A stretch of DNA of 64,000 nucleotides from Deltaproteobacteria bacterium (GCA_030603275.1 JAUVYB010000001.1:19832-83831), one strand, 5' to 3'; numbered from the stretch's first letter, positions 4,428-43,797 are shown. Numbers and translations: made by a program. Notes: a model not told the origin generated them from the sequence alone.

Positions 4428-6326
4428 TTGAAAGAACTAACCATAAGCTCTGACGCCCCCGGCCAGCGGCTTTTTGTCCTGGGCAATGAGGCGATAGCCA
4501 GGGGAGCTATTGAGGCCGGAGTTCAGGTTGCCGCCGCCTACCCCGGTACTCCTTCCAGCGAAATAACGGAAACCCTGGCCGCGGTGGCTAAAGAGCTGGA
4601 CATGTACGTCGAGTGGTCAACTAATGAGAAGGTAGCCTTTGAGGTTGCCCTGGCCGCTTCGATCTGTGGGGTAAGAGCCCTGGCCTCGATGAAACATGTC
4701 GGGGTAAATGTAGCTCACGACCCCCTGATGACCGCCAGCTATATCGGTGCCAAAGGGGGACTGGTTCTGCTCTCCGCCGATGACCCCTGGGCGTGGAGCT
4801 CCCAGAACGAGCAGGATAACCGCTATATCGCTGAACAAGGCTATATTCCCGTCCTTGAACCCTCCTCAGTCCAGGAAGCCAAAGATATGATGGCTGACGC
4901 CTTTAAGCTCTCCGAGCAGTTCCGGCAGCTTTTCATGCTCCGCTCGGTAACCAGGATAGGCCACGCCCGCAGCGATATTACCCTGGGAGAGATATCAAGG
5001 GAAAGAAGAAAAGGGCAGTTTATAAAAGACCGCACCCGGCTGGTCTATACCCCGCGTGAGGCCAGAATAAACAAGCCTCTAATGCTGGAAAGGTTTGAGA
5101 AAATAAAGAAGGCGGTCAATACCCTGCCCTATAACCAGCTAAAGCTGGCCGACGGCGCTAAACTGGGTATCATCGCCTGCGGCCTGTCCTACAGCTATAC
5201 TTTAGAGGCGGTAAAATGGCTGGAGATTGAGGATAGAGTTTCCATACTCAAGATTGGCACCCCCCACCCCCTCCCCGAGGAACTGGTTATAAAGTTGCTA
5301 AAATCAGTAAAAGAGGTGCTGGTAGCCGAGGAGCTGGACCCCTTTGTTGAGCTTCATGTCAAAGCCATCGCCGGAGAGCATAATATACCGGTCAAAATCC
5401 ACGGCAAGGATTTACTGCCCCGGATTGGGGAGCTATCCGCCAGAAAAGTCACCGAAGCCGTCGCCCGCTTAACCAAAACCAAGACGCCAGTGGACTTCGC
5501 CAGTATAGATAAGCTGGAGCAGGAGACAGCCCCCCTCCTCCCCTGGAGACCTCCCGCCCTCTGTCCCGGCTGCCCCCACCGCGCCTCCCATTACGCCATC
5601 AGGGTAGCTTCACGAAGAGTAGCCAGAGACCTTGGTAAAGAGGTAGAAGCTATCTACCCCGGTGACATTGGCTGCTATGCTCTAGGCTACAACCCACCGC
5701 AGGAAGCCTCAGATACCATCATCTGTATGGGGGGCAGCTTCGGCATTGCCAATGGGCTAGCCCGCGTCGTCGACGCACCGATAGTAGCCCACCTGGGCGA
5801 CTCCACATTCTTTCACTCCGGGATACCACCGCTGGTAAACGCCGTCTATAACAAGGCAAATATAACAATGATGATACTGGACAACTCGGCCACGGCCATG
5901 ACCGGCTTCCAGCCCCACCCCGGCACTGGCTATACCGCTATGGGTGATGAGACGGTTCTACTCAAGCCAGAGGATATAGCCAGAGCCTGCGGGGTAAAAT
6001 TCGTCGAGGTCGTCGACCCCTTTAACCTGAAAGAGGCAGCCGAGACTATTGAAAAGGCGATAAGGTTTGAGGGACCGGCCGTCGTCGTCAGCCGGAGGCT
6101 CTGCGCCATAATCGATCAGAGGGAGAGGAAAAAACGGAAGGAAGAGACTATCCCCTACCGCGTAGACCAGGACAAATGCAACAGAAAATGCAACGCCTGC
6201 ATCGAGCTTCTGGGCTGTCCGGCGATAATAAAAGAAGGGACTAAGACGGTAATCGATAGCTCGCTATGCACCGGTTGCGGCATCTGCGCCCAGGTCTGTC
6301 CCTACAAAGCGATAGTACCGGAGTAA
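4428..6326 (+). CDS. iorA: Indolepyruvate/arylpyruvate:ferredoxin oxidoreductase alpha subunit
   Basis: 632 aa with a TPP-dependent 2-oxoacid:ferredoxin oxidoreductase layout. C-terminal ferredoxin domain has CNACIELLGCP and CTGCGICAQVCP. TTG start with GGAGG 8 nt upstream. Confidence 0.85.
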   Translation: MKELTISSDAPGQRLFVLGNEAIARGAIEAGVQVAAAYPGTPSSEITETLAAVAKELDMYVEWSTNEKVAFEVALAASICGVRALASMKHVGVNVAHDPLMTASYIGAKGGLVLLSADDPWAWSSQNEQDNRYIAEQGYIPVLEPSSVQEAKDMMADAFKLSEQFRQLFMLRSVTRIGHARSDITLGEISRERRKGQFIKDRTRLVYTPREARINKPLMLERFEKIKKAVNTLPYNQLKLADGAKLGIIACGLSYSYTLEAVKWLEIEDRVSILKIGTPHPLPEELVIKLLKSVKEVLVAEELDPFVELHVKAIAGEHNIPVKIHGKDLLPRIGELSARKVTEAVARLTKTKTPVDFASIDKLEQETAPLLPWRPPALCPGCPHRASHYAIRVASRRVARDLGKEVEAIYPGDIGCYALGYNPPQEASDTIICMGGSFGIANGLARVVDAPIVAHLGDSTFFHSGIPPLVNAVYNKANITMMILDNSATAMTGFQPHPGTGYTAMGDETVLLKPEDIARACGVKFVEVVDPFNLKEAAETIEKAIRFEGPAVVVSRRLCAIIDQRERKKRKEETIPYRVDQDKCNRKCNACIELLGCPAIIKEGTKTVIDSSLCTGCGICAQVCPYKAIVPE

Positions 6327-6331
6327 AGGGA

Positions 6332-6937
6332 ATGGTAAAAGAGTTCAATATATTAATCACCGGGGTCGGCGGGCAGGGGGTAATTCTGATGTCAGAACTG
6401 CTGGGACGAGCCGCCGTCACCGACAAACTAAGGGTCAGGGGCTCGGAGATACTGGGGATGGCGGTCAGGGGTGGCTCGGTAACCAGCGCCATCAGAATCG
6501 GAGAAGAGGTCTACGGTCCTCTCATCCCCACCGGCAAGTGTAATACCCTGGTCGGCATGGAGCCCTCGGAAGCACTGAGGAATATCGCCTGTCTATCAAA
6601 GTCCAGCCTGGTCATAATTAACACGGCGGTAACCACCCCCTTCACCGTCTTCATAGGTGAGAGTAACTACCCCAGCCCGGAGGAAATACTGGAAAAACTG
6701 GGTAAAGCCTCCGGCAGGATAGTCCAGCTGGATGCGGCTAAAACTGCTCAAGATGCGGGAAGCCGCCTGGCTATCAATATCGTGATGCTGGGGGCATTAT
6801 TCGGCACCGGGCAGCTACCCATAAAAATAGACACCATAAAGGAAACTATAAGAGAGCGCTTCCCGGCTAAACTAGCTCCGGTTAACATCAGAGCCTTTGA
6901 CCTGGGCTACGAGACCTGCCGGCAAGCGGTTAAATAG
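6332..6937 (+). CDS. iorB: Indolepyruvate:ferredoxin oxidoreductase beta subunit
   Basis: N-terminus MVKEFNILITGVGGQGV is typical of the gamma/beta-type OFOR subunit. I moved the start from 6266 to the ATG at 6332, just after the iorA stop. Confidence 0.8.
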   Translation: MVKEFNILITGVGGQGVILMSELLGRAAVTDKLRVRGSEILGMAVRGGSVTSAIRIGEEVYGPLIPTGKCNTLVGMEPSEALRNIACLSKSSLVIINTAVTTPFTVFIGESNYPSPEEILEKLGKASGRIVQLDAAKTAQDAGSRLAINIVMLGALFGTGQLPIKIDTIKETIRERFPAKLAPVNIRAFDLGYETCRQAVK

Positions 6938-6940
6938 CCG

Positions 6941-8230
6941 TTATTCCAGCAGCTCCATAATATGCATCACCTTTACCGGCACCTTATTCCGCAGCAGACT
7001 GTCAATCAACTGAATCTCGCAGCCGGGGCAGCTGCTGGCGACAATATCAGCACCGGTGGACTTTATCGCCTCCACCTTCTTATCGGCAATCTGCTTGGAT
7101 AAGTCGTAATAGTACATGCTGAATGACCCGGCCATCCCGCAGCACCGGTCGGCATTGGGCATCTCAACGTATTCTATATCAGGTATTGACTTTATAATCT
7201 GCCTTGGCTGGCTGGTTATCCCCAGATGCCGGCTCAGATGACACGGGTCGTGCCAGGTAATCTTCTTGCCTTTAACTTGAGCCGAAGGTTTATAAGCCGA
7301 TGCCGGCAGTTTAAGCACATCAACCAGGAACTGGGAAATATCCAGTATCTTGCCGGCAAACTTGGCGTAAGCCTCTTCTCTCTCCGGGGTATCGGCCAGA
7401 AACTTGGGGTAGTCCTTAAGCGCCGAGGTACAGGTGGCGCAATCGGAGATAACATAGTCCAGGCCCTCAAAGGCTTTAACATTGCTATCAGCCATCTTCC
7501 GGCCGGTGTCAAAATCGCCCGCCCCCAGAAATACCGGTGCCCCACAGCACCCCTGCTCTCCGGGCACTATCACCTCCACCCCGTTCCTGGTCAGAAAATC
7601 AATTACATGCTTACCCAGGTCAGGCAGGACAAAATCGGTCATACAGCCGGTAAAATAGCCCACCGTCATCGTGGCCTTAACGCCACCGGGCGGCTTATTT
7701 ACCACCGGAACCATCTGCCTTAAGAACCTGGGGGCAATCTGAGGTATATTCCGCCCCTTACCCAGAGCCGAAAGAAACATGGAAAGGTGTCTGATGGTAC
7801 CCTCGGTCTTAGGCAGAAAAATCCCTTGAAACCAGGAGGCAAAGCGGATCACCCGGCCAAAAAGCGTCCGGCGGGGTAGTAGCCAGCGGTAGATGATATT
7901 ATAGGGGAATTTCAACCCCCTGGCCTTGACCATATCCGCCCTGGCAGCGACGATAACGTTGGGAATGTTGGCTTTAGATGGACAGTTGGCGGTGCAGGTC
8001 ATACAGAGGGTGCACTTGTTCAGACGGTCGGCGTACTCCTTAGTATAATCAAGCTCGCCGGCTAGCAGTCCCCGTATCATCATATTTTTACCGCGGGCAA
8101 CCGAAGGCTCTATCCGCTCCTCCTGATATACCGGGCACCAAAAGGTGCAAAAGCCGCACTTCATGCACTTAGTTAGGTCAGCCTCAAACCTTTTTATCTG
8201 CTCGTATCTATCCTGCTTGCTCTTTGCCAT
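6941..8230 (-). CDS. GlcF-like Fe-S oxidoreductase (2x[4Fe-4S] plus two CCG domains)
   Basis: Contains CMKCGFCTFWCP and CTLCMTCTANCP ferredoxin motifs, plus CCG motifs GCCGAP and RCCGMAG. The start lies 1 nt after the stop of the glcD-like gene. Confidence 0.8.
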   Translation of the reverse strand: MAKSKQDRYEQIKRFEADLTKCMKCGFCTFWCPVYQEERIEPSVARGKNMMIRGLLAGELDYTKEYADRLNKCTLCMTCTANCPSKANIPNVIVAARADMVKARGLKFPYNIIYRWLLPRRTLFGRVIRFASWFQGIFLPKTEGTIRHLSMFLSALGKGRNIPQIAPRFLRQMVPVVNKPPGGVKATMTVGYFTGCMTDFVLPDLGKHVIDFLTRNGVEVIVPGEQGCCGAPVFLGAGDFDTGRKMADSNVKAFEGLDYVISDCATCTSALKDYPKFLADTPEREEAYAKFAGKILDISQFLVDVLKLPASAYKPSAQVKGKKITWHDPCHLSRHLGITSQPRQIIKSIPDIEYVEMPNADRCCGMAGSFSMYYYDLSKQIADKKVEAIKSTGADIVASSCPGCEIQLIDSLLRNKVPVKVMHIMELLE

Positions 8231-8231
8231 A

Positions 8232-9623
8232 TCATACCCTTTCCTCTTCCCATATCTTGCCGGGGTTGAGGATGTGGTTGGGGTCCAGTATCGTCTTTAT
8301 CTTACGCATCAGGTTGAGGGCGACCGGGTCCATAGCTTTTTTAAGAAAACGTTGTTTTTCCAGACCAATGCCGTGCTCCCCGGAGAGGACACCGCCCAAA
8401 GACAGCGCCGCTTCGAATATCTCCTCCATCGCCTTCTGGGCTCTGGCAAATTCCTCCTTATTCCTGATATCGGTAAATATGGACGGGTGAAGATTACCGT
8501 CGCCGGCATGACCCAGGTAGCAGATAAAGAAACCGGTCCTCTCCGATATCTCATCCAGCTTGCGGATAAACTCAACCAGCTTATCCCGGGGCACAGCCAC
8601 ATCCTCAGCCATAACGGTGTGGGCGGCGCCAAAGGTAGCGGCAAAACCGGCGCTTCTCATCTTCCAGTACATAGCCGCCTCACTGGCGTCCTTGGCTACC
8701 TTAATCTCTTTAGCTCCGCTCTTTTTCAGGATATCAACGATTTGCTTAGATTCTGCTTCCACTGCCGCCGGCGAACCGTCAGCCTGAAGCAACAGCAGCG
8801 CCTTGGCATCCACTGGCAGCCCCATAGGGGTCATCTCCTCAATCCGCCGCAGGACAAAATTATCCACAAACTCAATCTTGGCTGGCACCACCCCACTGGC
8901 CATGATATTGGATACTGCCTGCCCGCCGACGGCCATATCGTCAAAGACCGCCATCATGGTCTTGTTGGCCGGTGGCATTGGTATTAATCTCAGCGTTATC
9001 TTGGTGATTAACCCCAGCGTCCCCTCGGAGCCGGTGAACAGCATTATCAGCTCATAGCCGGTACGGTTCTTAACCGTCACCCCGCCAAGGTTCATGATGT
9101 AGCCGTTGGCCAAAACCACCTCCAGCCCCAGAACATACTGCTTGGTCACGCCGTACTTAACGCAGTACGGACCACCTGCATTCTCAGCTACAGTGCCACC
9201 TATAGTACAGCCGAGAAAGCTCTGGGGGTCAGGGGGATAGAACAGGCCCTGCTTAGCCAGGGCAATATTAAAGTCCTGAAGCACGACGCCAGGCTCAACC
9301 GTAGCCGTCAGGTTAGTCTTGTTTATATCCAGGATTTTATTCATCCTGGTGGTACAGAGGACAATACCCCCCTTTATCGGGATGGAGCCACCGCTGACAT
9401 TGGTGCCAGCCCCCCTCGGGGTAACCGGAATTTTGCTCTCGTCAGCCAGCTTCAGAATCTGGGAAACCTGCTCGGCAGTCGTCGGCAGCACCACCACATC
9501 AGGCGCATGAGTCCAAGTAGTGGTGCCATCATAGGAATAGGCATTAAGGTCCTCCCTGGAGGTTAGAACCGCGTCCTTACCCACGACATTGCGCAACTGT
9601 GTTATAATCTTCTTCTCCAGCAT
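8232..9623 (-). CDS. FAD-linked oxidase, GlcD / D-2-hydroxyacid dehydrogenase family
   Basis: 463 aa with an FAD-binding PCMH-type N-terminal domain (PRGAGTNVSGG) and C-terminal GEHGIG. Tightly packed behind the 261-aa ATPase gene (1-nt gap). Confidence 0.85.
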   Translation of the reverse strand: MLEKKIITQLRNVVGKDAVLTSREDLNAYSYDGTTTWTHAPDVVVLPTTAEQVSQILKLADESKIPVTPRGAGTNVSGGSIPIKGGIVLCTTRMNKILDINKTNLTATVEPGVVLQDFNIALAKQGLFYPPDPQSFLGCTIGGTVAENAGGPYCVKYGVTKQYVLGLEVVLANGYIMNLGGVTVKNRTGYELIMLFTGSEGTLGLITKITLRLIPMPPANKTMMAVFDDMAVGGQAVSNIMASGVVPAKIEFVDNFVLRRIEEMTPMGLPVDAKALLLLQADGSPAAVEAESKQIVDILKKSGAKEIKVAKDASEAAMYWKMRSAGFAATFGAAHTVMAEDVAVPRDKLVEFIRKLDEISERTGFFICYLGHAGDGNLHPSIFTDIRNKEEFARAQKAMEEIFEAALSLGGVLSGEHGIGLEKQRFLKKAMDPVALNLMRKIKTILDPNHILNPGKIWEEERV

Positions 9624-9624
9624 A

Positions 9625-10410
9625 TCAACCCCCTTTAGAAACTTTTTCCCAGGCTACCAAAGCCGCCCCCAGGGCAGCCACAATCCGCGGCTCCTCGGGA
9701 AGCAGAAGGCGGCAGCCCAATCCCTCCTCTATGCTCTTCACCAGCCCTATATCCTTAGCCCCCCCACCAACTACAGCACAATCAGGCTCAATGCCAAGCC
9801 TGGCCACCATGGTCTGGATTTTAGCGGCTAAAGTCCTATGCAGGCCAGCCAGAATGTCTTCTTTAGCCGCACCTTCAGCAATGCGGGATACCGCTTCCGA
9901 TTCAGCGAATACGGCACAGCCGGTATTAAAGCTAACCCTGTTTTTAGACTTGAGGGATAACTCGCCGATATCTTCCAGGTCAATCTGCAGCACCCTGGCA
10001 ATCACCTGCAGGAAACGCCCGCTGCCGGCAGCGCATTTCTCACTCAGCAGAAAGGCGGTGGCTCTTCCCCGATTATTCAGCTTAAGCACCCTGGTAAATT
10101 GCCCACCGATATCAATGGCAGTTCGAGCAGCCGGAAATAGATAATACACACCTCTGGCCAGACAGGATATATCGGAAGCCGTTTCACTAGAAAAAGAGGC
10201 GCTGGCAGCACCATATCCGGTAGCTACAGTATAAGCTATATCCTTTAGCGATAGTCCTGCCTTAGTCAAAGCCTCCTCAATCACCTGCTCAGCGGTGAGT
10301 TTATAATTCCCTCCCGATGGCATTACTTCGTAGGCTATAATTTCGTTTTCGGCCATTATTACCGCTTTAGAGAAAGCGGAACCGATATCAATCCCTGCAA
10401 CATAAACCAT
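9625..10410 (-). CDS. Activator-type ATPase of the BcrA/BcrD/HgdC (BadF/BadG/BcrA/BcrD) family, paralogue 2
   Basis: 261 aa with ASKHA N-terminus GIDIGSAFSK. Cluster-ligand contexts EKCAAGSGRFL and TGCAVFAESE are present. Confidence 0.85.
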   Translation of the reverse strand: MVYVAGIDIGSAFSKAVIMAENEIIAYEVMPSGGNYKLTAEQVIEEALTKAGLSLKDIAYTVATGYGAASASFSSETASDISCLARGVYYLFPAARTAIDIGGQFTRVLKLNNRGRATAFLLSEKCAAGSGRFLQVIARVLQIDLEDIGELSLKSKNRVSFNTGCAVFAESEAVSRIAEGAAKEDILAGLHRTLAAKIQTMVARLGIEPDCAVVGGGAKDIGLVKSIEEGLGCRLLLPEEPRIVAALGAALVAWEKVSKGG

Positions 10411-10440
10411 TTTTATCTTAGAACCCTATCCCCTGTATCC

Positions 10441-10499
10441 CCTTCCCCTTGTTAAGAGGAAGGGGAAGGTTTTTTTCTGAAGAGGGACGAAGTCCCTCT
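10441..10499. other. Two adjacent GC-rich hairpins in the 100-nt spacer between the two ATPase genes
   Basis: Hairpin A pairs CCTTCCCCTT (10441-10450) with AAGGGGAAGG (10460-10469), followed by T7 on the plus strand. Hairpin B pairs AAGAGGGAC (10480-10488) with GTCCCTCTT (10492-10500) around a GAA triloop. Confidence 0.6.
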
Positions 10500-10510
10500 T
10501 AAACTCCCCA

Positions 10511-11356
10511 TTATGTAAAAATACTGGCCTCTGTCAAGCGGCGTTCGCTTCTGACCAGGGTTTCCCCCTTTTCCACCGCCTCTCCAACTATATCTTTACC
10601 CAGCAGCGCGGCCCCGATAGCCCCGGTAAGCAAGGGCTCAGGAGGCAGCAGCACCGGAAAGCCCAGTTTAGCTTCCAAAGCCTTTACCAAACCGATATTC
10701 TTAGCCCCACCGCCGGTCAGGGCTACCTCCCTTTCTATCTTAAGACGTCTTACCATCCCATATATCCGGGTGGCAATCGCCTCATGCAGACTGGCGATAA
10801 TATCAGGCAGTGCCACCCCCTCCGAAAGCCTGGCTACCACCTCCTGAGCGGCAAACACGGTACAGGTGTTACTTATCTCAACCCTATTCTTAGCCTCCAG
10901 TGACAATCTCCCCATATCCTCCAGGCTTACACCAAGCCCCTCGGCCATCACCTCTAAAAACCGGCCGGTGCCGGCAGCACACTTGTCATTCATGACAAAG
11001 TCCACCGCCCGCCCTGCCTTAAGCTTAATCCCCTTGCTGTCCTGACCGCCGATGTCAATCACCGTCCTTGCATCAGGCAGCAGGTGACCAACCCCCCGGG
11101 CGTGACAGGATATCTCGGTTATCTGTTTATCAGCAAAGGGGACATTAATTCGCCCATAACCGGTAGCCACCACATAGGTTATCTCATCAAAGGAAAGCCT
11201 AGCCTTCGCCAACGCCTCTTCCATTACCCGGTTGGCGAGCTTCCTGTGCTCAGGCCCGGTAGGACCGATGACCGAGGCCAGTGTTGCCTCACTCATAATC
11301 ACTACCTTGGTCATAGTGGAACCAATGTCAACCCCGGCAAAATACTGGCTCTTCAC
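10511..11356 (-). CDS. Activator-type ATPase of the BcrA/BcrD/HgdC family, paralogue 1
   Basis: 281 aa with GVDIGSTMTK, DKCAAGTGRFL and NTCTVFAAQE. Its ATG overlaps the stop of the upstream subunit gene by 4 nt. Confidence 0.85.
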   Translation of the reverse strand: MKSQYFAGVDIGSTMTKVVIMSEATLASVIGPTGPEHRKLANRVMEEALAKARLSFDEITYVVATGYGRINVPFADKQITEISCHARGVGHLLPDARTVIDIGGQDSKGIKLKAGRAVDFVMNDKCAAGTGRFLEVMAEGLGVSLEDMGRLSLEAKNRVEISNTCTVFAAQEVVARLSEGVALPDIIASLHEAIATRIYGMVRRLKIEREVALTGGGAKNIGLVKALEAKLGFPVLLPPEPLLTGAIGAALLGKDIVGEAVEKGETLVRSERRLTEASIFT

Positions 11357-12690
11357 CGGCTCTTAACCGCCTCCAGGGTATCAATAAATGCGTCTATCCT
11401 GGCTCTGGTGTCAGCCTCGTTATAGGAACTGATATCGACGATATCACTCTCCAGAATTAGCGATGGAATATCGCGGTAGATCCTCTTCAGCTGATTAAGC
11501 TGCCAGATTAAACCGGGATGCCAGCTGCGGCAGGAAAAGGCTTCATGCATAACTACCCCGTCTATTTTATAATCCTCAATATACTCAATAAGGCGCTCAA
11601 CATCGGGATTAGAGCCGGGGCGCTTTCTTGCTTTATCATGCCGATATGCCCAGTATTTGACCCACCTCCAGGCCAGGTGCTCCAGAGGGTCACTAACCCT
11701 AGGCAAGTCCAGATTATACACCGGTTCCACCAGCCGGTAGGTGACCTCAGCGGGAAATACCGCCCCCTTACTGTTGAAGTAGTTAAAATCAGTCAAAGCA
11801 AACCATGATGGCAGCCCCCCACCCCACAGCAGCCGGTATTTCTCATCGGGAATTACCCCTTCCCTGTTAGCTATCTTAAGCTGCAGCTCATCATATAAGT
11901 CCTTAAAGAAGTCATAAGCCTCCTGAGTTCCCATCATAAAGGTCATGGGCACCATGGTATTCATGGCGTCACCGGTACCCATGGGACAGGGTACCGCCTT
12001 GCGCAAATCATATGCCTCAGAAATCATGTTCCAGGTCCGGTCACTGATGTCAATCACCTCGCTTAAGCGGTCCCAGTCCATCTTCCGGTTGGTATGCCGT
12101 TCCAGAAATGCCACCAGACCCCGCAACTCCTCTACTATATATTTCACATAGTAGCCCTGAACATCGCGGTAATCATAATCGTCCTCATAGGGCGGATAGG
12201 GAAGCCCGGCAACATAGACCGGTACGTCAGGCATATAATGCTGCGCCGCCTGATACCACTTGTACCTGGGGTCGCAGATAATCTGGCCGCTACCCAGCAT
12301 TACCGTAGGCCGGGCCTGCCCTCCCCAGGGAGGATTGGGGGGCATTTCCCCCGTCTCCTCACGCCAGCTATCAAAGCCCAAACCGCAAAGGGCATAGGTG
12401 CAAAGGGAACGGGAGAAGTTCTCCGATTCCGCCTTCTCCAGAAATCTCTGGGCATCACGCTTGACACCGCATACGCCGGCGTAATTCTCCGTCCAGGCAG
12501 GTACTATATCCATAGCCCTGATAATCTCATCGTAGCCGCTATAGATAAAAGAATAAGCTATGGGCCTGCCTTCCTCTTTTGCCCGCAGATTTTCCGCCAG
12601 GGCTGCCTTAACCATGGGACCTACTCTACTGGCAGCCTCGGTAGCTGTCTTTCTCCTTTTCCTCTCTTCCGGTTTCTTCTCCTCAGTCAT
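11353..12690 (-). CDS. Benzoyl-CoA reductase B/O-type or 2-hydroxyacyl-CoA dehydratase large subunit family protein
   Basis: About 445 aa with HgdA/BcrB-family resemblance. I moved the start from 12825 to the ATG at 12690 (MTEEKKPEE...), which has GGAGG upstream and clears the previous gene. Confidence 0.75.
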   Translation of the reverse strand: MTEEKKPEERKRRKTATEAASRVGPMVKAALAENLRAKEEGRPIAYSFIYSGYDEIIRAMDIVPAWTENYAGVCGVKRDAQRFLEKAESENFSRSLCTYALCGLGFDSWREETGEMPPNPPWGGQARPTVMLGSGQIICDPRYKWYQAAQHYMPDVPVYVAGLPYPPYEDDYDYRDVQGYYVKYIVEELRGLVAFLERHTNRKMDWDRLSEVIDISDRTWNMISEAYDLRKAVPCPMGTGDAMNTMVPMTFMMGTQEAYDFFKDLYDELQLKIANREGVIPDEKYRLLWGGGLPSWFALTDFNYFNSKGAVFPAEVTYRLVEPVYNLDLPRVSDPLEHLAWRWVKYWAYRHDKARKRPGSNPDVERLIEYIEDYKIDGVVMHEAFSCRSWHPGLIWQLNQLKRIYRDIPSLILESDIVDISSYNEADTRARIDAFIDTLEAVKSR

Positions 12691-12712: not shown

Positions 12713-13888
12713 CTATTTTGAGCCGAGCACTTCCAGAAATGCCTGAATTCTGGTTCTAAGCCGACCAATGGTTGACATGGAATACTCATCCTCAAGATAA
12801 AGCACCGGAGCCCCCACCGATTCAATGTAGCTTTTCATCGCCGGCACATCAAAGCCATAGGGGTCGCAGTACTTATAGATATAGAGCACCACCCCATCCA
12901 CCTTAAAATCCTTGATAAAACGCCCGATATGCCCGAATCTCTCCTCAAGATAATCATCGTAGTCACCCTTCTTCTCCCTGAAGGTCCGGCCGCACTTTAT
13001 CTTCCTCAAATACCGCTCAGCTATACCTTCGATAGGGTCAGCGGTGACATCTGCATCATCAAAGAACTCCCTGGCTCCGGGGCACAAATCATCAGCCACC
13101 ACCCAGGCACCGCTATCCTCAATCAGGTCGATAAAAGTGACATCATCAACTTCGGCGCCGACCACCATTATTCGGGCTGGTTTGGCTGCCAGAACACCAC
13201 CCCTCTGTTTGACCTCCTTGATAACACTATCTATAAGCAGGGTGGCTTCCTCTACCGGCATACTCACCGACGCTATAAGCAATTTGGCTACCTCAGCGCC
13301 CGAGATTAAGGGTGGGGAAGCCTTCCTTAACTCATACAACTCCCTCACCTTAGCCCTGTTTTGATTATAGAGACTAATTGCCTGATTAAGACTCTGGTCA
13401 GAAATCTCCTTACCGGTGAACTTGCTCAAGCTGGTTCTAAACGTATTCAGCAGCGCTTTATAGAATTTGAGCGACGGCCCATCAGTGGAATGGGGCATAT
13501 TGATGAGATGGGAATAGGGGAGGTTAAGGGTATTTTTCCAGACATTGTAAGTCGTGGAGATACTATCACAGGCGTGAGGGATGACGATGCCGTCAAGGAA
13601 CTCATATTTCCCTTTTAGCGACATATCAAACCAGCTCCGCACCAGAGGACAGACGATAGTTTCCATCTCGGTATCAGCCTTGGTAATGGGCTCGTTGACA
13701 TCACCTTTTATCCGGAATGGAACCAGGCCGGCCGCAGCTATAATCTCAACCGGAGTCAAGGCACAAAGATAGCCTATTATCTGCTTCCCCTGCTTTTTCA
13801 GCTCTCTGACTCTGGAGCCGTAGTCCTCATAGTATCTATCTGCCGCCGCCAATCCCCTACTACCAGCTTCTTCTGGCATAACGTCCAT
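12713..13888 (-). CDS. Benzoyl-CoA reductase C/N-type or 2-hydroxyacyl-CoA dehydratase subunit family protein
   Basis: About 391 aa. The N-terminal GKQIIGYLCALTPVEIIAAAGLVPFRIKG is typical of this family. The start is ambiguous: TTG 13900, ATG 13888 or ATG 13879. Confidence 0.75.
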   Translation of the reverse strand: MDVMPEEAGSRGLAAADRYYEDYGSRVRELKKQGKQIIGYLCALTPVEIIAAAGLVPFRIKGDVNEPITKADTEMETIVCPLVRSWFDMSLKGKYEFLDGIVIPHACDSISTTYNVWKNTLNLPYSHLINMPHSTDGPSLKFYKALLNTFRTSLSKFTGKEISDQSLNQAISLYNQNRAKVRELYELRKASPPLISGAEVAKLLIASVSMPVEEATLLIDSVIKEVKQRGGVLAAKPARIMVVGAEVDDVTFIDLIEDSGAWVVADDLCPGAREFFDDADVTADPIEGIAERYLRKIKCGRTFREKKGDYDDYLEERFGHIGRFIKDFKVDGVVLYIYKYCDPYGFDVPAMKSYIESVGAPVLYLEDEYSMSTIGRLRTRIQAFLEVLGSK

Positions 13889-13910
13889 TCCTTTCCCCAA
13901 AAGCCCGGCT

Positions 13911-15119
13911 TCAAGGTATTACCTTTTCATTCTTTAAGTTAGTTATGTCATCCCAGGTATAACCCAGCTCTAACAGAATCTCTTCGGTGTGCTGCCCAAG
14001 CTCAGGCGCTTCTCTTTTCACCGAGGCCGGGGTCTCATGGAAAGTCCACGGGAAACCAAGCATCTTTATCTTGCCCCACACCGGGTGGTCAACCGGGATG
14101 ATATAATCATTAGCCAGGGCCTGCGGGTCCTTAAAAACCTCACTGGCCGACTGAATTGGAGTATGGATTACATTCTCCTTCTTAAAAATCTTCATCCACT
14201 CATCTCTGGCCTTGGTAGCAAATCTCTCATCCAGAATAGCCACCAGCTCTTTGCCATTATCATGCCTGGCTTCTATAGTACTAAATTTGGGGTCATGCTC
14301 CAGTTCCTCCAGGCCCATTGCCTTACACACGTTAGGCCAGTACCTATCCGGTTGGAGGTGAGCAATGACAATCCATTTGTCGTCGGCACACTTATAGTGG
14401 CTATAAATAGGGTTACCCGCTTCCGACCTGAGCAATCTGGGGAACTCCTGCCCCAAAACCCCGGGAGCGGCAAAGTTAACTCCATGCAAAGCAATCAGGC
14501 TGCCCATTAATGAAGTATCAACCACCTGCCCCTTACCCGTCTTCTCCCTAGCATAGAGTGCAGCGGTCACCGCCCAGGCACACATAAGCCCACCCTGCTC
14601 GTCACCCATCCCTGGAATCAGGGTTCCCGGCGGACCACCCCTCTCCCCACACATCATCATGGTTCCCGACCTGGCTATACCGGTGTAGTCAAAGGAAAGC
14701 TCATTAGCATCCGGGCCTTTTCTGCCCCAACCAGAGGCATGAGCATAAATAAGCCGCGGGTTCCTCTTGAGAAGTTCCTCAGGATCAATCCCCATCCTCT
14801 TTGGTGCCTCTATACTCATATTGGTCAGGAAAACGTCAGCCTTATCGATCAGCTTTAATAATATCTCCATCCCTTTTTTGGTTTTCAGGTCCAGAACGAT
14901 GCTCCTCTTATTGCGATTATTACTCTCAAAGTAATAGTTCCGCCCTTTTAAACCAGTATCGGCGCCAACAATCCTCATCATCCCTCTCGCCGGGTCTCCA
15001 GTATTAGGTTCAACCTTAATTATATCGGCACCCAAATCACCCAGTCTCATTCCAGCCACCGGCCCCTGCTGAAACATAGTTATCTCCACCACCTTAACCC
15101 CATCTAAAGGTCCAGCCAT
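13911..15119 (-). CDS. Family III CoA-transferase (CaiB/BaiF/Frc/FldA family), copy A
   Basis: 402 aa. N-terminus PLDGVKVVEITMFQQGPVAG and the catalytic-Asp context GMGDEQGG fit the family. Confidence 0.85.
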   Translation of the reverse strand: MAGPLDGVKVVEITMFQQGPVAGMRLGDLGADIIKVEPNTGDPARGMMRIVGADTGLKGRNYYFESNNRNKRSIVLDLKTKKGMEILLKLIDKADVFLTNMSIEAPKRMGIDPEELLKRNPRLIYAHASGWGRKGPDANELSFDYTGIARSGTMMMCGERGGPPGTLIPGMGDEQGGLMCAWAVTAALYAREKTGKGQVVDTSLMGSLIALHGVNFAAPGVLGQEFPRLLRSEAGNPIYSHYKCADDKWIVIAHLQPDRYWPNVCKAMGLEELEHDPKFSTIEARHDNGKELVAILDERFATKARDEWMKIFKKENVIHTPIQSASEVFKDPQALANDYIIPVDHPVWGKIKMLGFPWTFHETPASVKREAPELGQHTEEILLELGYTWDDITNLKNEKVIP

Positions 15120-15222: not shown

Positions 15223-16431
15223 CTAAAGTATAGCCTTTTCATCCCTTAGCTTGGTAATATCATCCCAGGTGTAACTCAGCTCTAACAGAATCTCCTCAGT
15301 GTGCTGCCCAAATTCAGGTGCCTCCCTTCTTACCGAAGCCGGGGTTTTACTGAAATCCCAGGGAAAGCCAACCACCTTGGTCCTACCCAAGACCGGGTGG
15401 TCAAACCAGGTAACGTAGTCATTGGCTAGAGCCTGGGGGTCATCAACCACCTCGCCGGTCGATTGAATAGGGGTATAGATTATACCCTCCTTCTTAAAAA
15501 TATCAAACCACTCCTCCCTTGTCTTGGTAAGAAACTCTTTATCCATAATAGCGATAAGCTCTCTGGCATTCGCCCCCCTGGCTTCTATACTATTGAACCT
15601 GGGGTCTTTTTCCAACTCGGGCATACCCAGAGCCCGGCATACATTAGGCCAGTACCTGTCCGGCTGGAGGTGAGCCAAAATGAACCATTTGTCATCCCTA
15701 GCTCTATAGTGGTTATAGATTGGGTTACCAGCCTCAGCTCTGACTTCCCTGGGGAATTCCTGGCCCAGTATAGCCGGCGCCGACAAAACCAGACTTAACA
15801 TAGACACTATACTTCCCATTAGCGAGGTATCAACCAGCTGCCCCTTGCCCGTCCTCTCCCTGGCATAGAGGGCAGTGCAAACCGCCCAGGCACAGACCAT
15901 CCCCCCAAGCTCATCGCCCAGCCCGGGCAATATCTGGGCGGGAGGGGTACCACGCTCCCCACAGGACATCATAAGCCCCGAACGGCCTATACCAGTATAA
16001 TCAAAGGAAAGCCCGTTGGCATCAGGGCCCTTCCTGCCCCAGCCCGAGGCTTGAGCGTAGATAAGCCTTGGATTTCTCTCAAGCAGCGCCTCAGGGCTAA
16101 TGCCTATCTTTATCGGTGCCTCTATACTCAGGTTAGTGACAAAGACATCAGCGCCATCAATCAGCTTTAAGAATATCTCCATACCCCTTTCCGTTTTCAG
16201 GTCCAGGACAATGCTCCTCTTATTACGATTGTGATTCTCAAAGTAATAATTCCGCCCCTTCAAACCAACCATGGTACCAATAATTCTCATAAAGCCTCTG
16301 GCCGGGTCTCCAGTTGGAGGTTCCACCTTAATTACATCGGCACCCAGATCCCCCAGCTTGGTGCCGCAAACCGGCCCCTGCTGAAACATGGTCAGTTCCA
16401 CCACTTTAACTCCATCTAACGGTCCAGGCAT
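15223..16431 (-). CDS. Family III CoA-transferase, copy B (tandem paralogue)
   Basis: Also exactly 402 aa and about 70% identical to copy A by eye, with GLGDELGG. The same CATAATTCACACCTCCT string spans both start sites. Confidence 0.85.
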   Translation of the reverse strand: MPGPLDGVKVVELTMFQQGPVCGTKLGDLGADVIKVEPPTGDPARGFMRIIGTMVGLKGRNYYFENHNRNKRSIVLDLKTERGMEIFLKLIDGADVFVTNLSIEAPIKIGISPEALLERNPRLIYAQASGWGRKGPDANGLSFDYTGIGRSGLMMSCGERGTPPAQILPGLGDELGGMVCAWAVCTALYARERTGKGQLVDTSLMGSIVSMLSLVLSAPAILGQEFPREVRAEAGNPIYNHYRARDDKWFILAHLQPDRYWPNVCRALGMPELEKDPRFNSIEARGANARELIAIMDKEFLTKTREEWFDIFKKEGIIYTPIQSTGEVVDDPQALANDYVTWFDHPVLGRTKVVGFPWDFSKTPASVRREAPEFGQHTEEILLELSYTWDDITKLRDEKAIL

Positions 16432-16784: not shown

Positions 16785-17486
16785 ATGCTGTGCAGATTGA
16801 CAGAGCTATTTACAGTGGCAAAGCGTACCTTCCAAACGGAAGGATTACCCCCTTTACTCACGCGTGGATTTGCCTTTCTGACAGGCTACTTCTTCCAATA
16901 CGGAACTTACTACCTTTATGAAATCGATATTTCGAAGGTATTGAAGCAAAACAATAAGCCCGATTTCCTGCCTGACATCCCGAATTTAACTCTCAAGATA
17001 GTCTCCACAAATGAGCAAGCCGATGAGTTGGATAGAGAGGGTTTTGAGTTTCGCTCACAGTTCATCAATGCTAGGAAAAGACTGGACAGAGGAGCAATAG
17101 CATTCTGCATTTTTATAGGGAGGGAGCTCGCCAACATAGGGTGGATTACCCTGACTAAGCAAGCCAAGGACAGCTTAATTGAACTGCCCTTCAAGGTAGA
17201 TTTTTCAAACAAGGAAGCCTGCACCGGAGGCGCCGTGACAGCTCCAAAATACAGGAACATGGGCATAATGAGGTACAATTATTTTAAAAGGCTTGAATTT
17301 CTAAAGGAAAATGGAAGGCTAAGAGACCGGGCTGCAGTGGCCAAAGGCAACGTCGCGGCTCAGACGGGGGTTGCCAAAATCAGCGATATAAATATAGATG
17401 CTGAAGCCCGCTTCCTAAAACTGCTGTGGTGGAAATTCTGGTGGGAAAAACCGCTAACACCGCCCAGCGTTCATAATCAGGCTTAA
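16785..17486 (+). CDS. Hypothetical protein, GNAT-like acetyltransferase fold suspected
   Basis: 233-aa ORF. The segment GGAVTAPKYRNMGIMRYNYFKRLEFL resembles GNAT motif A. The region is visibly AT-richer than its neighbours, and no clear SD precedes the start. Confidence 0.5.
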   Translation: MLCRLTELFTVAKRTFQTEGLPPLLTRGFAFLTGYFFQYGTYYLYEIDISKVLKQNNKPDFLPDIPNLTLKIVSTNEQADELDREGFEFRSQFINARKRLDRGAIAFCIFIGRELANIGWITLTKQAKDSLIELPFKVDFSNKEACTGGAVTAPKYRNMGIMRYNYFKRLEFLKENGRLRDRAAVAKGNVAAQTGVAKISDINIDAEARFLKLLWWKFWWEKPLTPPSVHNQA

Positions 17487-22127: not shown

Positions 22128-22616
22128 CTACTTTACCGGCTCAAAAGCAAAAAACACCCTCGGCGCCTCCTCCATCACACCGCCCCTTTTTTCTATTATC
22201 ATCGGCGGTACATCATAGACAGCCAGCTTGACGGTATCGCCTTCTTTAAGCTGCCCCTCTTTGCAGTTAATGACGCGGGAGATAAGCTTGCGCCCGTCCT
22301 CCAGTTCAATACGGGCGTGAATCAGAGGTGACTCAAAGCCGAGAGGGACTCCGGCTAACTCTTCGGTAAACCGAAGCACCTTGCCCTTAGTGGGCAGGTC
22401 AACCCACTCCAGGGAATCGGAATTACACTTCGGGCAGACCACCCGCGGCGGGAAAGACACGGTGCCGCATTTGGTGCACTTGGTGGTGGTAAAGCGGTTC
22501 TCCCTCAGGTTTTCGTAAAACTGGTGAACACGGTTAAACTCTTTAGCCTCGAAAGGATACATATCCAGAGTCGATGGGTATAAACCTTCTAAAATCGGTA
22601 CTCCCGGTACTGGCAT
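22128..22616 (-). CDS. DUF35 OB-fold/zinc-ribbon protein (thiolase partner)
   Basis: 162 aa with the zinc ribbon CTKCGTVSFPPRVVCPKCNS followed by an OB-fold-like region. Confidence 0.8.
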   Translation of the reverse strand: MPVPGVPILEGLYPSTLDMYPFEAKEFNRVHQFYENLRENRFTTTKCTKCGTVSFPPRVVCPKCNSDSLEWVDLPTKGKVLRFTEELAGVPLGFESPLIHARIELEDGRKLISRVINCKEGQLKEGDTVKLAVYDVPPMIIEKRGGVMEEAPRVFFAFEPVK

Positions 22617-22654
22617 AAACTTACCCCCTTATAATCTAGCGTTAATACTCTCTC

Positions 22655-23836
22655 TTAGGGCTCTCTACCGTAGATGAGTATGGTATGCTCAACGTTAAGG
22701 CCGCTCAGGTTATGGGTCAACCCTATCTTGGCGTCCTTCGCCTGATTTATCGCCCTGCCCTGCAACTGGAAGAAAATCTCCATCGCCTGGCGGATGCCGG
22801 TGGCACCAAAAGGATGGCCGCAGGAGAGCAGGCCGCCATCGGTGTTTACCGGAACCTTACCACCGAAATCGTTCTGTCCCGATTCTACAAAAGCACCCCC
22901 CTCCCCCTTCCTGCAGAACCCAAGGTCCTCCATCTCGATAATCTCCGAGATAGTGAAGCAATCGTGGGTCTGGGCAACATCGACATCTTCGGGACTGACC
23001 CGCGCCCTCTCGAAGGCCTTCTTAGCGGCGGTTCTCAGGTGAACCCAGTCGGACAGGTCTTCACCGAGCCAGTTCATCGACATACTGTGAAGAGAAGCCT
23101 GAGCCGTCCCCCGGATATAGACCAGGGGTCTATCGGTAAGCTCTTTGGCCTTATCCTCACTGACCAATATCACGGCGGCACAGCCGTCGGTGATAGGGGT
23201 ACAGTCAAACAGGCCGAGGGGCGGCACCACCGCCCTGGCATTTATCACCTCTTCTATGGTAACCGCTTTCTGGAACTGCGCCTTGGGGTTGTTGGCACCG
23301 TTACGGCGGTTCTTCACCGAGACAGCCGAAAGCTGCTCCTTGGTCGTGCCGTAGCGCTTCATATGATCCTGGGCAGTCATGCTGAAGAATGGGGGCGGCA
23401 GACCCATACCCTGGGCACCATCCCAATCATGGTCGATGGAAGCCATCTCGCTGTAATAGGTTTCCCAGCGCTGCGGCGTATATAGCTTCTCGCCGCCGGA
23501 TACCATCACCACATCGGCCATCCCTGCTTTTATCAGGCCAGTAGCCATGATAATGCCCGAACTACCACCGGCGCAGAGGGTGTCCACCCTGGTGCAGATG
23601 CTAGTCGGCTTGATACCGATGCGCTCGGCGACTACCGGAGCAGCGTTAACCTGGAAGGCGCTCCGTCCGCAGTAGGAAGAAGCAAAGATAAGGCCGTCTA
23701 TGTCATCTTTCTTCAGTGCCGGTACATCGTCAAAACAATCCTTAGCTGCTTCCTGAGCCATGTCTATTATGCTTGCCTCTCTAACCCCCCACCGATCCAT
23801 ACCCGCGCCGACAATACAAACATTTCTATCCGCCAT
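22655..23836 (-). CDS. Thiolase-like protein (SCP-x / lipid-transfer-type thiolase family)
   Basis: 393 aa with a thiolase fold, an active-site Cys context (TLCAGGSSG) and C-terminal GHPFGATG and NLSG motifs. Confidence 0.8.
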   Translation of the reverse strand: MADRNVCIVGAGMDRWGVREASIIDMAQEAAKDCFDDVPALKKDDIDGLIFASSYCGRSAFQVNAAPVVAERIGIKPTSICTRVDTLCAGGSSGIIMATGLIKAGMADVVMVSGGEKLYTPQRWETYYSEMASIDHDWDGAQGMGLPPPFFSMTAQDHMKRYGTTKEQLSAVSVKNRRNGANNPKAQFQKAVTIEEVINARAVVPPLGLFDCTPITDGCAAVILVSEDKAKELTDRPLVYIRGTAQASLHSMSMNWLGEDLSDWVHLRTAAKKAFERARVSPEDVDVAQTHDCFTISEIIEMEDLGFCRKGEGGAFVESGQNDFGGKVPVNTDGGLLSCGHPFGATGIRQAMEIFFQLQGRAINQAKDAKIGLTHNLSGLNVEHTILIYGREP

Positions 23837-23859
23837 GTTAAAACCTCCTTAAATATCGC

Positions 23860-24273
23860 CTAACCCTTTATAAATTCGTAGGCAATCCTGCCCTCAGGCA
23901 GTTTCACCGGGCTGACCGTTAAATTCATGCCGATCGTGATATCCTTCTCCTCAATATCCCGGCTCAATCGGGCCAGGATCTGTATGCCCTCATCAAACTT
24001 AGCCAGAGCCAGAATATAGGGAGCGTCGTTCTCAAAACCGCTGGGACCGTAATTTACCACAGTATAACTTGCGAGCTTACCCTGGCTCTTAACTTCGAAC
24101 CACTCCACATCGCTGGAAAGGCACTTCGGGCAATCCGCCTTGGGTGGAAAGTAGCTACCCCCGCACTTCCGGCATCTGGTGGCCATTACCTTGCCTGCCT
24201 CCAGTTGGGTTATAAAATCAGCCACCTTGGCTTCGGCAGTAAAGCTAACCGTGCCAAAATTCTCAAAGCCCAT
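23860..24273 (-). CDS. DUF35 OB-fold/zinc-ribbon protein (thiolase partner)
   Basis: 137 aa with the zinc ribbon CRKCGGSYFPPKADCPKCLS. Confidence 0.8.
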   Translation of the reverse strand: MGFENFGTVSFTAEAKVADFITQLEAGKVMATRCRKCGGSYFPPKADCPKCLSSDVEWFEVKSQGKLASYTVVNYGPSGFENDAPYILALAKFDEGIQILARLSRDIEEKDITIGMNLTVSPVKLPEGRIAYEFIKG

Positions 24274-24279
24274 TTAAAG

Positions 24280-25462: not shown

Positions 25463-26176
25463 TCAACCAGAGGTTAACGATAAGGTTGGTTTCAGATCAA
25501 GCTTTATGCCAGGTCCCATAGTAGTAGTCAAAGAAGCGGTCTTGATATACTGGCCCTTGGCACCGGCAGGCTTAGCCCGGGATATTGCCTCAATCACAGC
25601 GGTAAGATTGCCCATCAGCTTATCAGCCTCAAAACTAACCTTACCCAGCGAGACATGAATAATAGCCGTCCTGTCCAGTTTAAACTCCACCCGCCCCTGG
25701 CGGGCCTCGTTGATTGCCCGGGGCAAGTTTTCGCCAGCCACAACCGTCCCCGACTTGGGGTTAGGCATCAGTCCCCGCCTCCCCAGAATTTTCCCCAGCC
25801 GGCCTACCTTACCCATCATATCCGGGGTAGCTATAGCAGTATCAAAATCCAAAAAGCCACCATCAATCTTCTTAATCAAATCATCGCCACCCACCAAATC
25901 AGCCCCAGCGGTCTCGGCGTCTCTGGCCGCTTCACCTTGAGCAAAAACCAGAACCCGCACCTTTTTGCCCAGACCATGGGGCAAAAGAGCCACACCGCGC
26001 ACCTGCTGGGTAGCATCACGGGGGTCAACACCCATCCGCAGGTGAAGCTCAACCGTCTCATCAAATTTGGAGTAAGCCACCTTCTTGGCCAGCTCAATAG
26101 CCTCCAGGGGAGGATAAAGCTGGGCACTGTCTACCAGACCGACCGCTTCATTATATTTCTTACCGTGTTTAGTCAA
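25463..26176 (-). CDS. rplA: Ribosomal protein uL1
   Basis: 237 aa with typical L1 sequence (GKKYNEA..., [15 protein letters not shown]). Confidence 0.95.
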
Positions 26177-32928: not shown

Positions 32929-32933
32929 GAGCC

Positions 32934-34342: not shown

Positions 34343-34378
34343 AGCAATGGATTATCCAATCAAAGGAGGAACAGGCAA

Positions 34379-40691: not shown

Positions 40692-40708
40692 GGTATTTAT
40701 AGGGGGAT

Positions 40709-43758: not shown

Positions 43759-43797
43759 GTCCTCCCCTCAGGGACTTAACGGTTTATGTCAACCAGG

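Follow-up and report, generated by a model that had tools for sequence, protein, structure and literature searches.

The fldAIBC and hadAIBC-ldhA operons bring together a family III CoA-transferase, a pair of HGD-D subunits, an activase ATPase and a hydroxyacid dehydrogenase. In class I benzoyl-CoA reductase (BCR), the BzdN subunit holds a double cubane [8Fe-9S] cluster on six Cys ligands which stores at least two electrons for stoichiometric reduction, a cluster that has been lost in the dehydratases (PMC11971306). The luo operon of Desulfovibrio vulgaris includes por and the genes for a GlcD-like/CCG dehydrogenase, Dld-II (DVU3027/28); Dld-II shares a transcript with pyruvate:ferredoxin oxidoreductase (PFOR) and co-migrates with it, GlcD/CCG enzymes being known as oxidising dehydrogenases (PMC4481167). 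We have compared these systems with an operon in a 64,000-nucleotide stretch of DNA (the window) deposited as Deltaproteobacteria bacterium (GCA_030603275.1, JAUVYB010000001.1:19832-83831), the proteins of which have their best matches in Dehalococcoidia/Dehalococcoidales. On the minus strand, two CoA-transferase genes are followed by the radical-enzyme subunits HGD-D beta and HGD-D alpha (HGD beta and alpha), ATPase1 (ATP1), a 100-nt spacer, ATPase2 (ATP2), a GlcD-like and a GlcF-like gene (together GlcDF), with the iorAB genes for an arylpyruvate-type 2-oxoacid:ferredoxin oxidoreductase (OFOR) adjoining the 3' end (Table 1). Across Dehalococcoidia, ATPase2, GlcD and GlcF show a strongly conserved linkage and move together as one block, yet for the enzyme family this linkage is optional. 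From its genes, the operon probably feeds the radical enzyme both substrate and low-potential electrons. The region 4428-10410 is read here, tentatively and with a little less than even confidence, as the 3' half of a catabolic operon in which GlcDF and IorAB would serve as feeders for a BzdNOPQ-type ATP-dependent reductase.

Related loci from genome contigs and metagenomes, numbered L001 onwards, were compared with the window operon. Scanning of genome contigs for GlcD relatives of at least 60% identity located ATPase2 directly upstream of GlcD in 32 loci, in all of which GlcD was at least 76% identical to that of the window, and ATPase2-GlcD-GlcF was contiguous in 32 Dehalococcoidia species genomes. 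A metagenome scan from the ATPase2 side gave 44 informative loci, defined as having at least 1.5 kb downstream of the ATPase2 relative, and GlcD was present within 200 nt downstream of ATPase2 in 28 of these, which were counted as having a contiguous ATPase2-GlcD-GlcF order. From the HGD alpha side, the order ATP1-ATP2-GlcD-GlcF was observed in four of six contexts, the contexts L001/L002 and L089 containing neither ATPases nor GlcDF. Conversely, CoA-transferase-ATP1-ATP2-GlcD-GlcF occurs without HGD genes in L056, and the complete seven-gene cluster is intact amid unrelated flanks in L086 and L087. Junctions are conserved as well: the gap between ATPase2 and GlcD lies between -8 and +25 nt in every listed locus except L029 (81 nt), and GlcD and GlcF, L025 apart, either overlap slightly or are 1 nt apart. 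Spacing between ATPase1 and ATPase2 varies in relatives from 4 to 385 nt, and most relatives carry a single CoA-transferase gene. The earlier note on this DNA had presented GlcDF as a candidate electron-supply module, a proposal that finds partial support: the linkage is kept in relatives, but GlcDF is not an obligatory partner for the ATPases. No paper describing a GlcDF-ATPase linkage was found in the library that was searched.

Departures from this order were observed among close GlcD relatives (76-88% identical) in L075, L028, L032, L033 and L036. An AMP ligase is located upstream of GlcD in L075, while in L028 HGD alpha is followed directly by GlcD, the ATPases being gone and GlcDF still attached. 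The Thermodesulfobacteriota-type loci L032, L033 and L036 have a GlcD 75-76% identical to that of the window and neither GlcF nor ATPase, with a TrxR-like gene and an AMP ligase adjoining GlcD. In Acidobacteriota, GlcD is 66-70% identical and GlcF is kept in 14 of 16 loci, the exceptions being L050, which is without it, and L058, which ends at a contig edge; no ATPase or HGD gene is found in these loci. The neighbours in both outgroups were considered as a guide to the substrate and do not identify it, whether the MFS transporter, flavodoxin-like protein and convergent Glu/Leu/Phe/Val dehydrogenase of Acidobacteriota or the TrxR-like protein and AMP ligase of Thermodesulfobacteriota.

The residues of the radical enzyme point to a BzdNOPQ-type architecture with a different substrate pocket. 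Among solved structures in the PDB, HGD beta matched BzdN (8S02_B) with 199 bits, followed by HadC (139 bits) and DCCP (114 bits), and its best NCBIfam match was the double_cubane model (226 bits). The only six Cys of HGD beta (46, 84, 111, 273, 303 and 345) align with the six Cys common to BzdN and DCCP, which in the N-type subunit of class I BCR ligate the [8Fe-9S] cluster, and are kept in 58-60 of 60 orthologues; HadC carries four of the six. This retention is at odds with the single [4Fe-5S]-type site of the beta subunit in 2-hydroxyacyl-CoA dehydratases (HAD). HGD alpha matched BzdO (79 bits) ahead of MbdO and HadB in the PDB, its best NCBIfam match being HadB (103 bits). Cys98, Cys140, Cys388 and Glu69 of HGD alpha are invariant in 63 of 63 orthologues, and sequence alignment shows that equivalents of BzdO Cys95, Cys128, Cys380, Glu65 and Tyr97 are kept, including the three Cys and Glu65 that belong to the O-type subunit's catalytic [4Fe-4S]-OH2 site. 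In the pairwise sequence alignment, however, the positions of BzdO His131 and of the benzoyl-binding residues Trp46, Gln274 and Tyr298 are occupied by Arg143 (itself invariant), Ile50, Leu and Thr, respectively. Scores against the BzdNOPQ equivalogs are likewise far below the cut-offs (197 versus 454, 90 versus 449 and 160-166 versus 380), and no operon protein reaches the NCBIfam equivalog cut-off for glycolate oxidase, BzdNOPQ, BcrABCD or HadBC. Two further Cys of HGD alpha, Cys75 and Cys103, are kept in 60-63 of 63 orthologues and have no counterpart in the aligned BzdO. A weak ubiquitin match in residues 265-305 of HGD alpha was judged to be a chance short motif.

The two ATPases resemble the asymmetric pair of class I BCR. 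HadI was the top PDB match of both (for ATPase1, HadI 242 bits and MbdQ 241 bits), and both match the activase model TIGR00241 with 234-275 bits and retain the two cluster-bridging Cys. DIGGQD, GYGR and NDKCAAGTGRF are kept in the consensus of ATPase1 orthologues, whereas all ATPase2 orthologues are changed from GGQD to GGQF, GYGR to GYGA and NDKC to SEKC. MbdP, the second ATPase subunit of 3-methylbenzoyl-CoA reductase, has GGQT at the GGQD site, the Asp likewise being gone. The pair is therefore best described as a predicted Q/P-like heterodimer with one canonical and one diverged subunit, as in the two different P and Q subunits of class I BCR, and the conservation together of two diverged ATPase genes does not correspond to the one homodimeric activator of the dehydratases. 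Thus the window operon shares with BzdNOPQ and MbdONQP the four-subunit layout and the asymmetric ATPase pair and, with BzdNOPQ, the cofactor ligands described above. As in the Bzd-type system, in which a 2-oxoglutarate:ferredoxin oxidoreductase regenerates ferredoxin, an OFOR adjoins and is a plausible ferredoxin reducer. In contrast to that system, the window has neither the bzdM ferredoxin nor the dch-had-oah genes, a CoA-transferase takes the place of a ligase, and a hydroxyacid dehydrogenase is part of the operon. The class I BCR described from Chloroflexi is encoded by genuine bzdNOPQ genes accompanied by bzdM, korAB and bzdV (PMC5736913), a different locus type from the cluster of the window. 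The double-cubane protein DCCP with its ATPase DCCP-R (6ENO, 7YYL) shares the six-Cys motif and an ATP-dependent reductase partner. DCCP, however, forms a homodimer, has a single type of ATPase and acts on no CoA ester, unlike the window enzyme, a predicted heterodimer in which the alpha subunit, by its sequence, has lost the second cubane. Within the BCR/HAD family of radical enzymes, the window enzyme belongs to a distinct clade that is widespread and has BzdNO-type cofactor sites. It is treated here as a predicted ATP-dependent acyl-CoA reductase, with a dehydratase function as the less likely alternative.

Such a dehydratase function is the basis of the Fld-like reductive branch of the earlier note, in which GlcDF would reduce a 2-oxoacid to the (R)-2-hydroxy acid, the CoA-transferase would activate it and, after activation by the ATPases, the HGD pair would dehydrate it to the enoyl-CoA; an acrylate-pathway-like dismutation of an imported hydroxy acid is a variant of the same scheme. 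Gene content is the part of this proposal that holds, the window mirroring both fldAIBC with fldH of Clostridium sporogenes and ldhA-hadAIBC of C. difficile in combining a family III CoA-transferase, an HGD-D pair, an activase-type ATPase and an (R)-2-hydroxyacid dehydrogenase. In addition, the GlcD family is D/(R)-specific, the stereochemistry which dehydratases require, and HadI and HadB head the PDB matches of the ATPases and the NCBIfam matches of HGD alpha, respectively. The cofactor sites speak against it: HGD beta keeps the ligands of the second cubane that dehydratases have lost, two diverged ATPases stand where dehydratases have one homodimeric activator, no solved structures are closer than BzdN and BzdO, and Had equivalog scores fall far under their cut-offs. 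On these predicted sites, the radical enzyme does not fit a classical 2-hydroxyacyl-CoA dehydratase. The dehydrogenase, moreover, is a FAD/FeS GlcD-CCG enzyme rather than the NAD-dependent one of the fld and had operons and belongs to a group known to oxidise (PMC4481167); no acyl-CoA dehydrogenase or Etf is present among the annotated window genes; and variant clusters pair the core with a VdcC-like decarboxylase or a 4-hydroxybenzoyl-CoA-reductase-like Mo hydroxylase. Overall we regard a Fld/Had-like branch as distinctly unlikely, though not negligible.

GlcDF corresponds in subunit composition to Dld-II. The GlcD-like protein carries the HAGDGNLH and GEHG/GEHGIG motifs, aligned with LctD and 9QGZ, and its nearest solved structures are 9QGZ, named "glycolate oxidase" (329 bits), and 7QH2, LctD of the lactate dehydrogenase/Etf complex of Acetobacterium (305 bits), with mammalian LDHD also among them. 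Two CxxCxxCxxxCP motifs and two CCG domains are found in the GlcF-like protein, its best NCBIfam match being the C-terminal half of LdhH (338 bits). Assignment as glycolate oxidase is not borne out, as GlcD scores 498.5 against the TIGR00387 cut-off of 567.9 and 389 against 897 for PRK11230, GlcF scores 155 against 333 for PRK11274, and no third FAD_binding_4 gene that could encode GlcE is present in the operon or among the annotated window genes. Instead, a FAD_binding_4/FAD-oxidase_C subunit with the catalytic His/Glu motifs and a separate iron-sulfur subunit that combines a 4Fe-4S dicluster and a pair of CCG domains, without GlcE, are the components of D. vulgaris Dld-II. GlcD-like and GlcF-like are thus predicted to form a two-subunit Dld-II-type D-2-hydroxyacid dehydrogenase, for which aryl-lactate, mandelate-type or D-lactate-type acids are candidate substrates. 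As in luo, GlcDF adjoins an OFOR that would lead to an acyl-CoA. The OFOR of the window, however, is IorAB, of the arylpyruvate type and convergent, and the dehydrogenase genes end a radical-enzyme operon rather than a por-pta-ack operon. Window GlcD is 42-44% identical to the Desulfovibrio homologues recovered.

IorAB is assigned with both equivalog scores above the cut-off, IorA with 796 bits against 650.9 for TIGR03336 and IorB with 208.6 against 205.8 for TIGR03334. The earlier note called the genes divergent in its title; they are positioned tail to tail, as its own text had it, with a 3-nt gap between the iorB stop (6937) and the glcF-like stop (6941) read from the sequence. In related loci, iorAB is tail-to-tail with glcF in 25 and co-directional downstream of GlcF in L028 (46 nt) and L029 (17 nt), while iorB alone is co-directional downstream in L122. 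The two re-orientations of iorAB into the operon are a better argument for a functional tie than the convergent adjacency, which proves little by itself because uvrA, an unrelated gene, is equally syntenic. A separate arrangement was noted in L003 (16484-19792) and also in L004-L006, where IorA is fused to a GltD/NfnB-like Fer4_20 + Pyr_redox_2 domain in a protein of 1102 aa, suggesting an NAD(P)-linked arylpyruvate oxidoreductase.

Combined, these features suggest the following scheme. An imported (R)-2-hydroxy acid would be oxidised by GlcDF, translation of which is predicted to be coupled to the ATPase2 gene, to the 2-oxo acid, which IorAB would convert to acyl-CoA, CO2 and reduced ferredoxin. 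Reduced ferredoxin would pass electrons to the ATP1/ATP2 cluster, from which ATP hydrolysis would push them via the double cubane onto the cluster of the alpha subunit and so to the acyl-CoA. The CoA-transferase may activate the substrate acid using the IorAB product or succinyl-CoA; alternatively, the acyl-CoA formed by IorAB may itself be the substrate of the reductase. GlcDF would accordingly be an indirect, optional feeder module and not the direct reductant of the ATPases, and for this reason a third of the clusters could do without it. The sequences show the gene identities, the conservation of the cofactor ligands and the conserved linkage; the direction of the GlcDF reaction and the coupling through IorAB and ferredoxin are what we infer from gene content. 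This route from GlcDF through IorAB to ferredoxin, one of two put forward in the earlier note, gains from the luo precedent (PMC4481167) and from the co-directional iorAB of L028 and L029, while conservation of iorAB is a weaker part of it.

Several observations weigh against the scheme. GlcDF is absent from 16 of the 44 informative loci holding an ATPase2 relative, and the reductase is therefore able to work without GlcDF; in addition, GlcDF or GlcD 66-76% identical to that of the window occurs in Acidobacteriota and Thermodesulfobacteriota with no ATPase or HGD gene nearby, so that an obligatory partnership of GlcDF and the ATPases is not upheld. iorAB is absent from 15 of 43 informative loci, its convergent adjacency is conserved no better than that of uvrA, and the placement may be inherited synteny. 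Neither a ferredoxin gene nor an outlet for the GlcDF electrons is found among the window genes. Gene content, namely a family III CoA-transferase, an (R)-specific hydroxyacid dehydrogenase, an HGD pair and an activase, is equally fld/had-like. A spacer of variable length filled with REP-like elements separates the two ATPase genes, the single transcript thereby staying putative, and all evidence for the operon consists of gene context and sequence.

Some of the same observations would be expected if GlcDF were co-transcribed with the radical enzyme yet functionally separate, an ordinary enzyme of D-lactate/2-hydroxyacid utilisation located at the 3' end of the operon, with IorAB as a syntenic neighbour. 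GlcDF orthologues stand alone beside an MFS transporter in Acidobacteriota, one third of the clusters with an ATPase2 relative are without GlcDF, tight junctions are usual in this compact genome, and uvrA is as syntenic as iorAB. Chance association of this kind is difficult to reconcile with persistence of the ATP2-GlcD-GlcF order and its short junctions across 65-95% identity and changed flanks (L086, L087, L056), with attachment of GlcDF to HGD alpha in L028 after loss of the ATPases, or with re-orientation of iorAB into the operon in L028 and L029. Functional separation is consequently considered unlikely, although it retains appreciable weight.

A more direct connection would have GlcF docking on the ATPase heterodimer, electrons of the hydroxy acid entering the bridging [4Fe-4S] and ATP lifting them to the potential of the reductase independently of ferredoxin. 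Predicted translational coupling of GlcDF specifically to ATPase2 agrees with such docking, as does the behaviour of ATP1-ATP2-GlcD-GlcF as a four-gene block, retained without HGD in L056 and missing as a whole from L001 and L089. The cluster has no ferredoxin gene, a CCG protein is encoded upstream of the distant HGD/ATPase cluster in L134, and the CCG/HdrD-like protein BamD is part of class II benzoyl-CoA reductase. Energetically, however, 2-hydroxyacid/2-oxoacid couples lie at about -190 mV, far above the ferredoxin-level donors which, to our knowledge, all known members of the BCR/HAD family use. GlcDF orthologues in other phyla also lack the ATPases, many ATPase pairs lack GlcDF, and GlcF has no extra domain compared with ordinary Dld-II/GlpC-type subunits. 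We consider direct input improbable to a high degree. Equally little credence is given to an extension in which the ATPases and GlcDF would form a self-contained, substrate-coupled and ferredoxin-independent electron pump into the double cubane, or its variant in which the enzyme would be a stoichiometric reductive alpha-dehydroxylase of a 2-hydroxyacyl-CoA without a beta-hydrogen, such as mandelyl-CoA or glycolyl-CoA. An indirect contribution of GlcDF through IorAB thus remains the preferred reading.

Gene layout is consistent with operon membership of all eight minus-strand genes. Pfam and NCBIfam matches agree with the families originally given to GlcD-like, GlcF-like, ATPase2, IorA and IorB, all coordinates of the earlier note are confirmed, and sequence reads give a single nucleotide between stop and start at both junctions singled out previously, ggt TGA t ATG ctg at 9627-9621 (ATPase2/glcD-like) and gta TGA t ATG gca at 8234-8228 (glcD-like/glcF-like). 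The earlier note took these junctions as a sign of coupled expression with the radical enzyme. They do indicate operon membership, but nothing beyond that by themselves, as a 1-nt gap is unremarkable when gaps of at most 4 nt account for 18 of the window's 44 co-directional junctions, for example rplL-rplJ (1 nt); conservation in relatives is stronger evidence than the spacing. The ATPase1 start overlaps the HGD alpha stop by 4 nt. HGD alpha starts with the ATG at 12690 and not the TTG listed at 12825, as indicated by translation and by homologues of 444-449 aa. Flanking genes are housekeeping (uvrA, an HD protein, comM, ribosomal proteins, tuf, a trp/aro operon and tRNAs), and the cluster is therefore an island.

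Table 1. Features of the radical-enzyme operon and adjoining iorAB genes, in window coordinates.
Feature	Coordinates	Strand	Details
Family III CoA-transferase 1	15223..16431	-	402 aa; PF02515, 378 bits; below every NCBIfam equivalog cut-off
Family III CoA-transferase 2	13911..15119	-	Recent paralogue, 72% identical to CoA-transferase 1
HGD-D beta (BzdN-like)	12713..13900	-	Six Cys at aligned BzdN/DCCP positions
HGD-D alpha (BzdO-like), predicted catalytic subunit	11353..12690	-	~445 aa
ATPase1, BcrAD/BadFG family	10511..11356	-	PF01869, 222 bits; canonical motifs
ATPase1-ATPase2 spacer	10411..10510	-	100 nt, two REP-like palindromes
ATPase2, diverged partner subunit	9625..10410	-	BcrAD_BadFG; 51% identical to ATPase1
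GlcD-like FAD-dependent D-2-hydroxyacid dehydrogenase subunit (predicted)	8232..9623	-	463 aa; PF01565 + PF02913 (FAD_binding_4 + FAD-oxidase_C)
GlcF/HdrD-like iron-sulfur subunit	6941..8230	-	429 aa; Fer4 dicluster + two CCG domains
IorA, indolepyruvate/arylpyruvate:ferredoxin oxidoreductase alpha	4428..6326	+	TIGR03336; C-terminal 2x[4Fe-4S] domain
IorB, beta subunit	6335..6937	+	TIGR03334; stop TAG

The spacer between the ATPase genes contains palindromes at 10480-10500 and 10439-10465, with a folding energy of -39.4 kcal/mol (z = -2.56). In relatives, one to several copies of three palindrome families are present at this position, and members of these families are also scattered through further intergenic stretches of the related contigs. 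No Rfam match and no U-tract were detected in the spacer, and a riboswitch or terminator specific to the operon was rejected on these grounds together with the occurrence of the palindromes elsewhere. They look like REP elements and suggest a dispersed repeat family of Dehalococcoidales. An internal promoter for ATPase2-glcDF, suggested by a strong sigma-70-like match, TTGACA-16-CATAAT (10537-10510, at the end of ATPase1), was also discarded: among 29 relatives the -35 box shows no conservation, the -10 box coincides with the Phe-Thr-stop codons of ATPase1, and the match is treated as chance.

Genes for uptake and activation vary around the constant core, a pattern which appears characteristic of an operon for the catabolism of an organic acid taken up by the cell. 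An MFS transporter is located upstream of the operon in the window and in several relatives, TRAP DctPQM genes follow GlcF in L034 and L035, and an AMP ligase replaces the CoA-transferase in L029. This ligase is 57% identical to the one beside Thermodesulfobacteriota GlcD, and the same type is directly upstream of a second GlcD in L075. A shared ligase type beside GlcD therefore suggests that GlcD is tied to the acid-activating part of the pathway and not to the ATPases as such. In L001/L002 (11374-15648), HGD beta and alpha are followed by COXG and a Mo hydroxylase, the best NCBIfam match of which is the alpha subunit of 4-hydroxybenzoyl-CoA reductase (683 bits, below cut-off). In L133 and L135, a VdcC-like (UbiD) hydroxyarylic-acid decarboxylase (623 bits versus a cut-off of 650) follows ATPase2, and an AMP ligase is also found: in L135 it immediately precedes the ATPases, while in L133 it lies some 1.5 kb upstream of HGD beta. 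These variant clusters point to aromatic acids as predicted substrates.

The CoA-transferase itself is not diagnostic of substrate. SUGCT is the nearest solved structure to CoA-transferase 1 (184 bits), SUGCT and formyl-CoA transferases being nearest and benzylsuccinate CoA-transferase further. A generic annotation as "benzylsuccinate CoA-transferase" appeared earlier in PMC4959651, a companion study of PMC4481167. An aminotransferase convergent to clusters lacking GlcDF (L108 and L120) was also set aside, being of a general type and probably housekeeping; in L120 an Lrp-type regulator adjoins it.

Other genes were noted around related cores and elsewhere in the window. Many relatives (L007, L010, L012, L021, L054, L055, L088-L092, L094-L096 and L121) carry, as part of the operon, a gene that the window lacks. 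It encodes a 310-aa protein of metallo-beta-lactamase fold (ODP-like) and sits directly upstream of HGD beta, after the CoA-transferase gene where the latter is present; as a guess, its product may be a thioesterase or a di-iron protein protecting against oxygen or NO. The HGD/ATPase core of L134 (97-8729) is combined with a CCG protein, thiolase/DUF35 and a MaoC hydratase. In the window, two pairs of DUF35 (ChsH2-type Zn-ribbon/OB) and SCP-x-type thiolase genes (22128-25431) form an unusual insertion in a ribosomal cluster, flanked by rplA (25463-26176) and an L10 leader (RF00557, 21982-22110) with rplJ-rplL. A tie between these genes, at 22-25 kb, and the operon was rejected, as their identity to the thiolase adjoining the distant cluster of L134 is only 34-35%. 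At 42709-45489, a split phosphoenolpyruvate (PEP)-utilising enzyme consists of a 349-aa PPDK_N ATP-binding protein and a 563-aa mobile-His-domain protein, which we take to resemble phenylphosphate synthase PpsB/PpsA. A T-box leader (29575-29837; RF00230, 119.5 bits) precedes a trpEGDCF/DAHP-synthase operon for aromatic amino-acid biosynthesis (29882-42681). Divergent from the radical-enzyme operon is a 233-aa open reading frame (16785-17486) with no family match and no counterpart in related loci.

In anoxic sediments and aquifers, Dehalococcoidia rank among the most abundant uncultured bacteria, and views of their diet are for the most part guesses from genomes. Genes of the type described here were filed in earlier genome papers as benzoyl-CoA reductase or benzylsuccinate CoA-transferase; here the core is linked with a D-2-hydroxyacid dehydrogenase and an arylpyruvate oxidoreductase. 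The comparison defines a compact set of 8-10 genes amenable to expression and assay. If the feeder scheme is true, one hydroxy-acid co-substrate would yield both a thioester and low-potential electrons, making an ATP-costly reductase affordable to energy-limited strict anaerobes.

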